DNA from: a virus | Taxonomy: Duplodnaviria > Heunggongvirae > Uroviricota > Caudoviricetes | DNA: 14,810 nucleotides | IMG/VR virus record: IMGVR_UViG_2698536307_000010 | Direction: 5' to 3' (one strand) | Shown here: positions 1-6,000 of the stretch, piece after piece | Numbering within the stretch: the first letter of the stretch is position 1 | How the letters are laid out: each line of letters opens with the position of its first letter | Program-made: the position numbers

Positions 1-3000
1 CGGCGCTTAGTGCTGAATTCACTATCGGCGAAGGTGAGTTGATGGCTCATGATGTCCCTCTGGGATGCGCTCCGGATGAATATGATGATCTCATATCAGG
101 AACTTGTTCGCACCTTCCCTAATGGACTCAACAGGTTTGTCATTACGGATATTACAGGTAGTGCAGAAACCTACCCTGTACTTATTGATACGGTGGAAGT
201 TAAAGCAAACAAAGCTGGAGCAGCCGCATAATTGCTAAAAAAAGCCGCCAGCGGCAGGAATGGAAGCTGGCGGAGGTAATCCCAATGGAGAATGTAAAGA
301 AAAGATGCTTTCGTACATTGGTTTTTAAATGAAAACAATTCTCATTGTCAACCATAACGGTAAGAAATTATGACATTTATTCATCAGGTGATGCTGTACT
401 TCTGTACGGCGGTCTGTGTGCTGTATCTTCTTTCGGGTGGGTACAGGGCTGTGCGCGATTTCTGGTGCAGGCAGATTGATAAAAGGGCCGCTGAGAAAAT
501 CAGCGCCAGTCAGTCAGCCGGAAGCAAACCCGAAGAGCCCGTTACTCCTTAACAACCCCTTTCAGCGAGAAAATCCCATGTCAGAAATCACATCCCTGGT
601 CACTGCAGAGGCAGTGAAGGAAGTCCTGCGCTCTGAAGAAGTCCGGAGCGCACTGAAACAGAAACTTCGCCAGAACCTTGAGTCGCGTCTTGATGCAGAA
701 GTGGATGCCATTCTGGATGAGCTGCTGGGCGTACCAGCGGTTCCTGAGCCGGAAGGTATCGCGGGTGACGGGAGTGCTTCAGATGGCGGTGAACCTACAC
801 CTGACAGCGACATGATGATGTAAGCATGCGCAAGGGACCATCGGTGTGTGCCGGTGGTCTTTATATTGTTGTGAGCTTCCGGATTGCGGGAGACGGGGTA
901 TGTACCAGATGGAAAAAATCACAACAGGTGTGTCATACACCACGTCAGCGGTGGGAACGGGCTACTGGTTCCTGCAGTTGCTGGACAGGGTTTCCCCGTC
1001 TCAGTGGGCGGCAATAGGCGTGCTGGGGAGTCTGCTGTTTGGGCTGCTGACGTACCTGACTAACCTGTATTTCAAAATCAAAGAGGACCGGCGTAAGGCG
1101 GCGCGGGGAGAGTAAGCTGATGAGCAGGAAATTCCGCTATGGTTTATCAGCGGTCGTTCTGGCGCTGATTGCTGCGGGCGCTTCTGCGCCTGAAATCCTC
1201 GACCAGTTTCTTGACGAAAAAGAAGGTAACCACACCACGGCATACCGTGATGGTGCGGGTATCTGGACTATCTGCCGCGGTGCCATCCTGGTGGATGGCA
1301 AACCTGTCGTTCCGGGCATGAAGTTGTCGAAGGAAAAATGCGACCGGGTTAACGCCATTGAGCGTGATAAGGCGCTGGCATGGGTGGAGAAAAACATCAG
1401 AGTGCCACTGACCGAACCGCAGAAAGCGGGCATCGCGTCATTCTGTCCGTACAACATCGGGCCTTCGAAATGCTTCACCTCAACGTTTTACCGGAAACTG
1501 AACGCAGGAGACCGGAAAGGTGCATGTGCTGAAATCCGCCGATGGATATATGACGGCGGCAGGGACTGTCGGAACCGCTCAAATAACTGTTACGGGCAGG
1601 TATCGCGGCGTGACCAGGAGAGCGCGCTGGCGTGCTGGAGTATCGACAGATAAGCAGAATATTCTGCTGAAAAATGCCGTTGACCAACGCGAACGGATAA
1701 CACGAAACCCTGCGAACTGGCAAAATTTAAGTGAGTAAAAGTAAAAACCCCGTTTGTTGGCAGCAAGCGGGGTTTTGTGTTTCTGACCTTGAATAAGGCA
1801 AGGGAGAAATTATGGGTAGGGAGGTTCTTTCCCTGTGAGGAAGTATAAAAGATTCTTTCTGAGGTTGTCCATTATGAAAGGCATTGAGGTGGAGACGCCA
1901 GCAAGTCTGGATTTAACAAGAGCGGCAGCTTTTGCCATTCGTATTGTGGCAATTGCTGTTCTGGTCTGGGCAATCCGTTGGTGGTGATATGAATCGTGTG
2001 CTGTATGGCGTGCTTATTGTCCTGCTGCTTGGTTGTGGATCGCTGTGGCTGGCAACAGACCATTACCGTGATAACGCCATCACCTACAAAGAGCAGCGAG
2101 ATGATGCGAAGACAAAACTCAGCCAGGCGAACGCCACCATTGCTGACATACAGCAGCGCCAGCGTGATGTTGCTGCACTCGATGCCAGATACACTAGGGA
2201 GCTTGCTGATGCTAACGCGACTATTGAAAGTCTCCGTGCTGATGTTTCTGCTGGGCGTAAGCGCCTGCAAGTCGCCGCCACCTGTGCAAAGTCAACGACC
2301 GGAGCCAGCGGCATGGGCGATGGAGAAAGCTCAGGACTTACAGCAGATGCTGAACTCAATTATTACCGTCTCCGAAGTGGAATCGACAAGATAACCGCGC
2401 AGGTTAACTACCTGCAGGAGTACATCAGGATGCAATGCCTCGATTAACAGAGCCAGCTCAATCGCTGGCCTTTTTTATGAGGAGAGATATAACCTGAATC
2501 AATGCCAGTGCATTATCAACAAATGGATCACTGGGTAAGCTCGTTTGGTTTTAAATGTCCGTCGAGAATCAGATTGTGATTTTCCCGATGCAGAACCAGT
2601 GTGCCCATATAATCAGGTTTAAATCTCCATCCATTCATTTTTTTTGCAATTCTGGACAGACAGTGATTATGTGTGAAAATCACAGTAACATGATCTGATT
2701 TTGATATTTTAAGGATATTATTTACTGCGTTATCATCACATGTCGATATGTCCGGAATAGTTGCTGTCTTACCTCCCGAAAAAAAAGTGGCTGTCTGCAT
2801 TGTTCGGAGTGTGTCTGTAGAATAGAGACTGTAGTATGGAAACATTCTTCTGAATTTATCTCCATATTGTTGAGCTTTGTTAGCTCCGTTTACTGTGATT
2901 CCCTCATGTGCTGAAAGACATATTCTTTGGGAGCGATCGCATCTTTCCCCATGCCGGATGAGAAAAATAATGGGATGTTTCTGGTTAATCTCAGTGACAT

Positions 3001-6000
3001 CGTTCACATCAAGTCTGACTGGAGTTCTTACAATGTATATGATGGATACAGAAACGATTATGACAAGTAAAAATATAAGAAGAGATTTTGTTAGCGTTTG
3101 ATTTAACATATAAATTCCCTTGTCTGTGTTGAAAATGGGCATTATTATGCGTAAATCTTATGTAATCCTTAAGGATTGTCTGACGTGGTGATATGACGCG
3201 AAATACAGTGGGTACACAGAATGCTGTGAACAACGACGAAATGGGCATTGGTAGCGGTACTGGTGCTTTTTTTATTGGTTGGTTGCTCAAGTCTTGATAA
3301 AGCGCGTTAGCTTTTTGGTATTGCCTCTTAGGTCTGTAAAATTGCCGACGGTGTCCGGCAGTGCATGCAGGGCTGATCGTCTATGAGAACAGAATATATT
3401 GCTAAAAATGAAGTGTGCGTCAATGCTTATAAAGCATGCAATTCTGTATTTCTAACTATTCAATAAAATAAATTCTTTCTGTCGCAGTGAATATACAAAT
3501 GTTGATCAGCGCTCGATGTGGCGACGGGTTTCTATATCAGGAGACTTTGGCATTTATCCGCGAGGCAGCCTATCTGGTGCTGTAGTGGAATGAAGCGGAT
3601 ATAACCTAAATAAGGTTAAACATTAATCAGACATGGCTCTGCTGTGTGAAATCTGAAAATTTACAGCAGTCATTGTGCATCAGTTTTTAACAGAGAACGT
3701 CAGAAGGTGACATGGCAAAGCTGGACTGGAAAAAGCTGGAGCAGGCATTTCGACGCGAACATGTCAAAACCGGCATAAAGCTTCAGGACTGGTGCCGTCA
3801 GAACAATATCAGTTATGACACGGCTCGGCGGTACATTAAACTGCGCAAACACTCCCCCAGAAATACAGAGAAAAGTGCGCAGAAAAATGCGCAAATTGAT
3901 GATCAAAAAAGTGCGCAGAAATCTGACGGCAACTCCAGTCATGACGAGCCTTCAGGCGATGATGGTTGTGATGAAAAATGCGCAAATTTGGCAGAAACGA
4001 AACGGACTCGTGGTTCCAGACTTTTGCCACCTTCAAATGCTTTTTCTCAGCGTAACACCCACGCCGTCAGACACCGTGGATACGCGAAGTATCTCGAGGC
4101 AGATAACCTCATAGATGATGCAGTCGGAATGGAACTTGCCGATGAACTGGTGTTTACCCGGGCCCGCGCACTTTCAGTAACAGGAACACTGAAAAAAATG
4201 TTCGCCGACCTGAAAGAGGCGGCTGACGTGGAAACCCGCGTTGCTCTGTACGACAAAATACTCAAAGCTGAACAGGCTCTTGACCGGAATATTGCCCGTA
4301 TCGAGTCAATTGAACGCTCATTGCTGACGCTGGACGTTCTGGCTGAAACAGCACCAAAACTTCGTGCTGACCGGGAAAGAACCAACGCTGCCAGAGATAA
4401 ACTCAGAGCGGAAACCGATATTCTGACCAGCCAGCGTCGGGGCGTTGTTACGCCTGTCAGTGACATCGTGTCATCGCTGCATGAAATGAGTAATTCGGGG
4501 AGACTGGATGACATTCCGGAAGAATGAACCGCGATGTGATGAACCGTCAGAAATGACAGAGGCCGAACAACGTCTGTTCATCATGACTAAACTGAGCAAT
4601 CCCTGGTGGCGGCTCAATCATCTCTACAAGATACAGAACGAAAAAGGTGAGCTGGTCACCTTCAGAATGCGACCGGCGCAGCGCCAGTTGTTCCGGAGCA
4701 TGCACAATAAAAATATTATCCTGAAAGCACGCCAGCTGGGGTTTTCCACGGCCATTGATATTTATCTTCTCGACCAGGCATTATTCATACCGCATCTCAA
4801 ATGCGGGATTGTCGCTCAGGATAAACAGGCTGCCAGTGAAATTTTCCGCACCAAAATTGCTGTACCGTTTGATCATCTTCCTGACTGGCTGAGAGCCTCA
4901 TTCACCATCGTTGAACGTCGTAGCGGAGCCAGCGGTGGCTATATCCTGTTTGGGCACGGCTCGAGTATCCAGGTGGCAACCTCATTCCGTTCAGGTACGG
5001 TGCAGCGCCTGCATATCTCAGAGCACGGCAAAATTTGCGCAAAATATCCGGCTAAGGCGAAAGAGCTGCGAACCGGTACACTTAATGCCGTCTCTGATGA
5101 GTGCATTATTTTTGATGAGTCCACTGCTGAAGGTGTGGGTGGCGATTTTTACGAGATGAGTAACCGGGCACAGGAAATCACTGCATCAGGGCTGGCGCTG
5201 ACGCCACAGGATTATAAATTCCATTTTTACGCCTGGTGGCAGGATCTCAAATACAGCGCCAGAGTGCCGGAAAGCGGACTTAAGCTGTCACGGGAAAAAA
5301 CAGCGTATTTTTCTGCGGTTGAAAAAGCAATGAACATCACGCTTACCGATGAGCAGAAACACTGGTACATCTGCAAGGAAACTGAACAGCGTGAGGAAAT
5401 GAAGCAGGAGTTTCCCTCAACACCACAGGAGGCGTTTCTGACGTCCGGACGACGGGTGTTCAGTGCGGAAAGCACGCTGCAGGCAGAGTCATTCTGTTCG
5501 CCACCGCTGATTGTTTATGACATTGAACCGGTTACAGGAACGAAGACCAAAGCGCAGTCTCTGCGTGACGGGAATAAAGCCGAACAGCACCGGACGCTGA
5601 TGAATTATCTGCTGGTCTGGGAGCTACCGGATCCGGATGAAGAGTATGTATGCGGAGCGGATACCGCTGAGGGGCTGGAGCACGGAGACCGCTCATCGCT
5701 GGATATCATCAGATGTAGTAATGGTGAGCAGGTAGCCCACTGGTTTGGTCATCTCGATGCGGAGCTTTTCGCTCATCTCATTGCGCAGGTCTGCCGTATG
5801 TACAACAACGCGTTTGTGGGGCCGGAGCGTAACAATCACGGACATGCCGTTATCCTGAAACTCCGGGAACTCTATCCGACGCGTTATATCTACAACGAAC
5901 AGCACCTTGACCAGGCATATGACGACGATACGCCCCGTCTTGGCTGGCTGACAACCCGCCAGAGTAAACCGGTCCTGACTGAGGGAATGAAAACGCTGCT

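Follow-up and report, generated by a model that had tools for sequence, protein, structure and literature searches.

What does a lone minus-strand gene do in the middle of a prophage late operon, and under whose control might it be expressed? The question is raised by the IMG/VR virus record IMGVR_UViG_2698536307_000010 (Caudoviricetes), a stretch of 14,810 nucleotides, here called the window, in which a gene of the Ais/PmrG histidine phosphatase family (the ais-like gene) lies between the spanin genes Rz/Rz1 and the terminase small subunit gene terS. We conclude that this gene is very probably an Ais-family phosphatase moron. The explanation that we favour for the locus as a whole, with measured confidence, is that it encodes an anchored periplasmic phosphatase of the lipopolysaccharide (LPS) core, controlled by PmrA/BasR and carried by a 933W-like prophage negative for the Shiga toxin genes (stx).

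The longest minus-strand open reading frame (ORF) spans 2528..3142 and comprises 204 codons, whereas the annotation pipeline PGAP and the homologs use an internal start at M12, which yields a product of 193 residues. The M1 start was rejected, being without a Shine-Dalgarno sequence, overlapping the predicted -10 hexamer (ATG at 3142..3140, hexamer at 3146..3141) and differing from the start used by PGAP and the homologs. Among the coding sequences of an identical Escherichia coli O104:H4 prophage, taken from the Q antiterminator gene onwards as far as the tail-gene region was retrieved, the ais-like gene is the only one on the minus strand. Its flanks in the window are identified by matches to Phage_lysis and phrog_370, in agreement with the initial annotation, which had described it from the sequence as the only minus-strand late-region gene between Rz/Rz1 and terS. 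The AT-richness then judged by eye was borne out by computation, with a GC fraction of 0.374 for the coding sequence and 0.392 for the island 2448-3711, the flanks having 0.514 and 0.532; the lowest-GC 615-bp interval of the entire sequence begins at 2551. In phage 933W the same Rz-terS slot is occupied by bor, which is likewise a minus-strand gene, as expected from the earlier proposal of a bor-like moron slot with different cargo, and the related prophages L004 and L005 have the slot without the ais-like gene. The locus therefore combines two properties by which a moron is recognized, namely a slot differently filled in relatives and a deviant base composition.

Family membership was established by profile, pairwise and structural comparison. 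The protein passed the gathering threshold of Pfam PF00300 His_Phos_1 (28.7 bits against 21.7, E 1.3e-6) and the cutoff of NCBIfam NF011945 (PRK15416), the Ais/PmrG subfamily model (201.9 bits against 142), to which residues 20-198 align at profile positions 14-199 of 201, near full length. BLASTP against K-12 Ais (b2252) gave 43% identity (E 9e-44). In alignments of 22-27 family members, R52, H53, R56, C57, D58, R59, S60, C64, R102, H147, H149 and C150 are invariant, and the RHG (R52 H53 G54) and FTHNHC (145-150) motifs are intact and invariant or nearly so family-wide; phosphate-pocket residues were assigned by motif position, not from the model. An AlphaFold (AF2) model built from the family alignment (predicted local distance difference test score, pLDDT, 90.9; predicted template modelling score, pTM, 0.85) consists of a single long N-terminal hydrophobic helix (residues 2-28) followed by an alpha/beta domain with the phosphoglycerate-mutase-like fold of branch-1 histidine phosphatases. 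The RHG signature, second THNH motif and N-terminal anchor noted initially are thus retained after profile search, structure prediction and alignment, in which the catalytic histidine and arginine residues are all present. Between prophage lineages, the ratio of nonsynonymous to synonymous substitution rates (dN/dS) is 0.18-0.21 at dS 0.65-1.0, and a ratio of ~0.2 indicates that the protein is under purifying selection. RefSeq/PGAP already names it 'lipopolysaccharide core heptose(II)-phosphate phosphatase', so that the family identification is correct and not new. What is new here is the conserved PmrA-type promoter, the distinct mobile-element clade and the dissection of the flanking DNA. 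PHROGs contained no family for the protein, and literature searches by accession and locus tag, or for a phage-borne ais/pmrG, retrieved nothing relevant.

A neighbour-joining tree resolves the family into a chromosomal and a mobile-element clade, with the window protein in the latter. Members of the chromosomal clade (E. coli Ais, Salmonella PmrG, Citrobacter) have a cleavable signal peptide ending ...HAWS, and those of the mobile-element clade a hydrophobic anchor followed by 'RTP'. Judged by its sequence relationships, the ais-like protein is a paralog from the mobile-element clade and not a PmrG ortholog. Its anchor is predicted to remain uncleaved, with an N-in/C-out orientation that would place the catalytic domain in the periplasm; this topology agrees with the conserved cysteines and with the way charge is distributed around the anchor.

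The upstream DNA suggests how such a gene could be expressed against the direction of the late operon. A predicted PmrA/BasR box, CTTAAGgattaCATAAG, stands alone in the 14.8-kb window at a tolerance of one mismatch or fewer, against a chance expectation of 0.44 matches; since CTTAAG is a palindrome, the site is detected on both strands. The Salmonella PmrA box has been published as CTTAAG-N5-xTTAAT, and CTTAAT-N5-CCTAAG of Klebsiella has been experimentally verified as a PmrA box (PMC3973317). For comparison, homologous loci were drawn from prophages in E. coli genomes and from IMG/VR, phage records yielding only GER2. A box is retained upstream of the ATG, at a distance of 47-54 nt, in six diverged lineages (the window and five others), although the DNA beyond it is unrelated. 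The boxes of the five other lineages read CTTAAGgat(t/c)aCATAAG, CTTAAGga(t/c)tcCTTAAG (a perfect repeat), ATTAAGcgttaTTTAAG, GTTAAGattttCTTAAT and ATTAATtgcctCATAAG; within lineages, the half-sites are constant and the spacer is variable. The best -10-like hexamer (AATAAT, TATAAT or TATATT) lies exactly 10 nt past the box in five of the six lineages, the same spacing that separates box CTTAAGgttaaGTTAAT from TAAAAT at K-12 arnB. A positional dinucleotide-shuffle test, which estimates the probability of an equally good match 40-60 nt from the ATG and does not include the plasmid copy L036, gave P values of 0.0008 for the window, 0.0002 for L025, 0.006 for L008 and 0.0012 for another lineage.

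The gene thus displays the sequence hallmark of the PmrA regulon, a box suitably placed upstream of a -10 element. The SPATE-linked plasmid paralog (P0036), used as a negative control, has no PmrA box within 400 nt. A generic sigma-70 scan returned weak matches only, none of them at the predicted ais-like promoter, an outcome that we attribute to a PmrA-dependent promoter without a -35 element. An Rfam scan of the whole window (E<=1) produced no match, and hence no known small RNA or riboswitch in the intergenic DNA. The cassette boundary (~3184) falls ~11 bp beyond the box, so that the box is essentially the whole upstream region travelling with the gene. Collectively, promoter sequence and geometry suggest that the moron is probably a unit with a PmrA/BasR-activated, class-II-type promoter, subject to host PmrAB control.

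Several observations weigh against this interpretation, in whole or in part. The PmrA motif is short and AT-rich, and half-site 2 in the window (CATAAG) departs from xTTAAT at two positions. The box of L007 is the weakest (shuffle P 0.06), and the lineages share ancestry, so that they are not fully independent tests of the box. The promoter itself is predicted, a scan of the DNA downstream of the ais-like gene revealed no clear minus-strand terminator, and the only downstream hairpin (2452-2469) has its T-run on the plus strand. At the protein level, the His_Phos_1 match is limited to profile positions 1-67. The likeness to Ais/PmrG proposed initially holds at the level of the subfamily model and of identity to K-12 Ais; it does not extend to orthology with PmrG, whose equivalog model NF052369 scored 113.2 against a cutoff of 170, and separation from the chromosomal Ais/PmrG clade makes substrate identity uncertain. 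Finally, the benefit of a second copy beside a near-universal chromosomal ais is unexplained.

With these points considered, we propose the following model. The segment ~2448-3184 is a compact moron inserted in the variable spanin-terS slot of an stx-negative 933W-like lambdoid prophage. The predicted promoter of the moron itself, composed of a PmrA/BasR box in class-II position and a -10 hexamer, would drive the gene in the direction opposite to the late operon. The ais-like gene would remain silent until the host sensor PmrB/BasS is activated by Fe3+, Al3+ or mild acid. The anchored periplasmic phosphatase would then join the PmrA regulon and strip a phosphate from the LPS inner core on the periplasmic surface of the inner membrane, the target by homology being heptose II phosphate. 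Loss of phosphate would lower the negative charge of the surface and raise tolerance to metals and cationic peptides, and it may also alter an LPS-core phage receptor. Direct support extends to the gene, its family and fold, the integrity of its catalytic residues, the purifying selection that acts on it, its status as a moron, and the conservation of the box and of its geometry; PmrA binding and induction, periplasmic topology, substrate and phenotype are what we infer from them. For the substrate, homology is the sole basis, since the equivalog cutoff was failed and the clades are separate in the tree, and we regard heptose II phosphate as a tentative assignment on which our judgement is almost evenly divided.

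Distribution of the gene supplies further evidence for weighing the alternatives. The window allele occurs at >=99% identity in 43 complete E. coli genomes and at 100% in at least 15 genomes listed. The prophage clade as a whole is present in 83 of 5426 complete E. coli genomes (~1.5%) and chromosomal ais in 5413 of the 5426 (99.8%), so that lysogens carry two divergent paralogs. The prophage-clade gene is always on the minus strand between lysis genes and terminase, on backbones that vary in endolysin (P21-type lysozyme, M15 peptidase or GH108) and in terminase. A tblastn search of 50,697 phage records returned GER2 (MG710528) as the sole match. There the gene is annotated as a 273-bp fragment (L006, 1629-1901), whereas tblastn aligns all 193 residues in one piece at 99.5% identity; the short annotation is probably an artefact or the result of a point nonsense change.

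Three further sets of relatives were observed on mobile elements. The traG gene of IncI plasmids (L037 3878-4462, plasmid pHU590) encodes an Ais-family histidine phosphatase with ~45% identity to the window protein; it lies between traF and traH, near the shufflon recombinase gene rci, and is found on ~1,400 IncI-type plasmids (PLSDB). The P0036 paralog (L031, L032 and L033 at 5001-5582; 43% identity) was recorded in 817 index blocks of the contig collection, on virulence-plasmid-like contigs, between an EAL-domain gene and two hydrolase genes and upstream of a SPATE autotransporter. The third, P0067 of E. coli UMNF18, is a frameshifted porcine enterotoxigenic E. coli (ETEC) prophage-clade copy labelled 'transcriptional activator AfrS' by NCBI; the loci of its clade are L008-L010 (3477-4052).

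The alternative that survives best retains the fold and location and changes the substrate, which might for example be heptose I phosphate or its pyrophosphoethanolamine (PPEtN), lipid A 1-diphosphate, or a phosphoprotein of the periplasm or membrane, the heptose(II) label having been over-transferred. The PmrG equivalog shortfall, identity of only ~37-43% to the chromosomal clade with a clean split in the tree, and a membrane anchor in place of a cleavable signal peptide are all consistent with it; a second copy beside the universal chromosomal ais is easier to explain if specificity differs, and the nearest solved structures of similar size include the protein phosphohistidine phosphatase SixA. 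Against this, the signature RH(G/A)ERCDRS...TxRTxQ...FTHNHC and the cysteines are common to both clades, the curated Ais/PmrG subfamily model is passed, and the predicted PmrA-type promoter would place the gene in the same regulon as LPS-charge modifications. We therefore consider a different substrate unlikely, though deserving of serious attention. A wider version of this idea, less likely again in our view, is that the anchor-bearing mobile clade (prophage morons, IncI TraG and virulence-plasmid copies) would form a mobile toolkit for editing LPS-core or envelope phosphate with a substrate specificity distinct from that of PmrG, changing docking in phage adsorption and IncI thin-pilus recognition, the prophage versions being plugged into PmrAB and acting in conditional exclusion or conversion.

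A related proposal concerns benefit rather than mechanism and is compatible with the PmrA-controlled LPS-core phosphatase that we favour: the selected function could be superinfection or surface exclusion, against phages or mating, through the LPS-core receptor, with metal and peptide tolerance secondary. Many coliphages and the IncI thin pilus recognize the LPS core. Surface-acting genes of lysogenic conversion, bor among them, use this slot, an exclusion lipoprotein is encoded elsewhere in the same prophage by cor, and family members sit in the IncI transfer region as traG, adjoining the thin-pilus shufflon. However, PADLOC defence-protein models gave 0 families at E<=0.01 for the ais-like protein, and a PmrA-dependent promoter would make protection conditional rather than constant; as the primary selected function, exclusion appears improbable.

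The AfrS label raises the further idea that the protein regulates fimbrial or adhesin expression, its main effect being on gene expression and not on LPS. AfrS, together with AfrR, is reportedly needed for expression of the AF/R1 pilus in the rabbit pathogen RDEC-1; a literature search on AfrS found nothing relevant. Given the modelled membrane-anchored phosphatase fold, the label 'transcriptional activator' cannot denote direct DNA binding, and without a DNA-binding domain any transcriptional effect could arise only indirectly, through envelope signalling. No fimbrial operon adjoins the gene in the window, and we judge a regulatory role of this kind very improbable. Least credible of all is a decaying, non-functional passenger: the adjoining lipoprotein gene has decayed, the sole phage-database copy (GER2) is annotated as a fragment and the UMNF18 copy is frameshifted, but the ORF of the window is intact and has the identical and near-identical copies counted above, dN/dS is ~0.2, the catalytic residues are all invariant and the promoter architecture is conserved.

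The gene, its predicted control elements and the surrounding features are listed in Table 1.

Table 1. Features of the ais-like locus and its neighbourhood, in window coordinates (aa, amino acids)
Feature	Coordinates	Strand	Basis
Holin, P21 S family; start of the lysis cassette	846..1115	+	Pfam Phage_holin_2_1, E 1.5e-32
Endolysin, phage lysozyme	1120..1653	+	Pfam Phage_lysozyme, E 5e-25
37-aa membrane ORF upstream of Rz	1874..1987	+	PGAP coding sequence in identical prophage; phrog_4493, E 5.5e-16
Rz, i-spanin	1989..2447	+	Pfam Phage_lysis, E 1e-36; PGAP start
Rz1, o-spanin lipoprotein, embedded in Rz	2242..2394	+	Sequence MFLLGVSAC...
Terminator-like hairpin and T-run just 3' of Rz	2452..2479	+	Consensus scan, GCCAGCTCAATCGCTGGC and CTTTTTTATG
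ais-like gene, 193 aa, Ais/PmrG-family histidine phosphatase, mobile-element clade	2528..3109	-	ORF, PGAP, profiles
Shine-Dalgarno sequence AAGGGA for M12	3116..3121	-	Sequence; equal layout in homologous loci
Predicted -10 hexamer AATAAT, 10 nt downstream of the box	3141..3146	-	Spacing comparison across lineages and K-12 arnB
Predicted PmrA/BasR box CTTAAG-gatta-CATAAG, direct repeat, gene strand	3157..3173	-	Consensus match, CTTAAGgattaCATAAG
Decayed gene (pseudogene) for a small phage lipoprotein of the phrog_7528 family, function unknown	3185..3545	+	80-82% identity to L004, L005
terS leader region, backbone and not cargo	3558..3711	+	Conserved with 933W-like phages
terS, terminase small subunit	3712..4527	+	phrog_370, E 1.2e-117; 933W L0112
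terL, terminase large subunit	4508..6214	+	PGAP 'terminase'; 933W L0113

The window represents a lambdoid prophage late region, with lysis genes followed by terS, terL, portal, capsid and a collagen-repeat tail fibre. Over the tested stretch 2400-3800 it is 100% identical to a prophage found in E. coli O104:H4 strains such as 2011C-3493, C227-11 and HUSEC2011; further strains with 100% identity over the same stretch include ML35 and FORC isolates. In the O104:H4 record the backbone is 933W-like, and no stx is annotated between the Q antiterminator gene and the SASA esterase gene (L001 10157-10921, outside the window). The early region of the same O104:H4 prophage carries several toxin-antitoxin genes (hokD, doc-like and relE/parE-like), and cor lies near its tail genes. 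The tail-fibre gene of the window (12910-14736, plus strand) contains long collagen-like Gly-X-Y repeats, with a local GC fraction of 0.63-0.68 against 0.52 for the window.

The hairpin just 3' of Rz is located in the 80-bp gap between the convergent stop codons of Rz and the ais-like gene. It is strong, resembles an intrinsic terminator and is placed within the late operon, ahead of the packaging genes. Transcription that is not antiterminated would end here, and the convergent ais-like gene would be shielded.

The DNA upstream of the gene is composite. Of the ~600 bp of AT-rich non-coding DNA described initially, the absence of an intact gene was upheld (3110/3143-3711). Its apparent unity was not, as it resolves into three parts: a promoter region of ~75 bp, the 361-bp lipoprotein pseudogene (3185-3545) and a terS leader of ~155 bp. 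Homology to 933W restarts at 3558 with 83.6% identity, and Stx-phage matches cover query 1227-1398, equivalent to window 3626-3797. In the lipoprotein segment the start codon is lost and two in-frame stops are present, for which reason it is regarded as a pseudogene. The homologous segment lies between endolysin and terminase in many other E. coli prophages. Intact copies encode a lipoprotein of 51-60 residues with the lipobox LLVGC (L004/L005 4036-4191, 51 residues; L007 4317-4499), and in other lambdoid prophages they come after the endolysin and the 37-aa ORF; in L004 and L005 the lipoprotein gene directly follows that ORF. One might speculate from this position that the phrog_7528 lipoprotein is an alternative outer-membrane lysis component. 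A reading of 3143-3711 as a long regulatory region of the moron itself was rejected, as homology puts the cassette end at ~3184, and by sequence comparison the cargo cassette proper appears to comprise only ~2448-3184. The 12-nt junction GTGGTGATATGA is present twice, at 1981-1992 and 3185-3196. It consists of the end of the 37-aa ORF and the ATG of the next gene, and its copies bracket a 1.2-kb unit made up of Rz/Rz1, the ais-like gene and its promoter. This arrangement suggests that the whole 1.2-kb unit entered by recombination and so came to separate the 37-aa ORF from the lipoprotein gene.

That the bor slot holds morons is textbook knowledge. If the PmrA-controlled LPS-core phosphatase is correct, a prophage of the O104:H4 2011 outbreak lineage adds a second, membrane-tethered LPS-core phosphatase to the PmrAB surface-charge programme and illustrates clearly how phage cargo can be governed by a two-component system of the host, with possible effects on tolerance to iron, aluminium and cationic peptides, including polymyxins, and on LPS-dependent phage adsorption. 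The comparison further draws attention to a large group of mobile, uncharacterised genes of the Ais family, among them traG on the ~1,400 IncI-type plasmids.

Set against known systems, the ais-like gene is closest to Salmonella PmrG and E. coli Ais, with which it shares the subfamily PRK15416, the catalytic and cysteine signature, export to the periplasmic side (predicted for the window protein) and association with a PmrA box. PmrG is reported to dephosphorylate heptose II in the LPS core, one of the LPS modifications under PmrAB control (Nishino 2006, cited in PMC8129183), and this activity is known only for Salmonella PmrG. The chromosomal genes lie beside the arn/pbgP operon and their products have the cleavable ...HAWS signal peptide, whereas the window gene is prophage-borne and specifies the anchor, predicted to be uncleaved, with 'RTP'. 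The window gene also has a box to itself, 47 nt upstream of its start codon, whereas the sole box within 260 nt upstream of K-12 ais lies 192 nt away and on the arnB strand. The two differ in distribution as well, ~1.5% of complete E. coli genomes carrying the prophage gene and 99.8% carrying ais.

The bor gene of lambda and 933W is alike in slot, in its minus-strand orientation relative to the late operon and in having an envelope-targeted product. Bor, however, is a small and unrelated outer-membrane lipoprotein, whereas the window protein is predicted to be an inner-membrane-anchored enzyme regulated through a PmrA box. IncI TraG, P0036 and the 'AfrS'-labelled ETEC prophage gene share the mobile-element clade or family, the N-terminal anchor and mobile carriage, at 41-53% identity to the window protein and in other genomic contexts: unlike the window gene, IncI traG is inside the tra operon, and P0036 is without a PmrA box. 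SixA and other short branch-1 histidine phosphatases of solved structure are the most distant, with 12-18% identity; SixA-type proteins are cytoplasmic, have neither the anchor nor the conserved cysteines of the window protein, and act on protein phosphohistidine.

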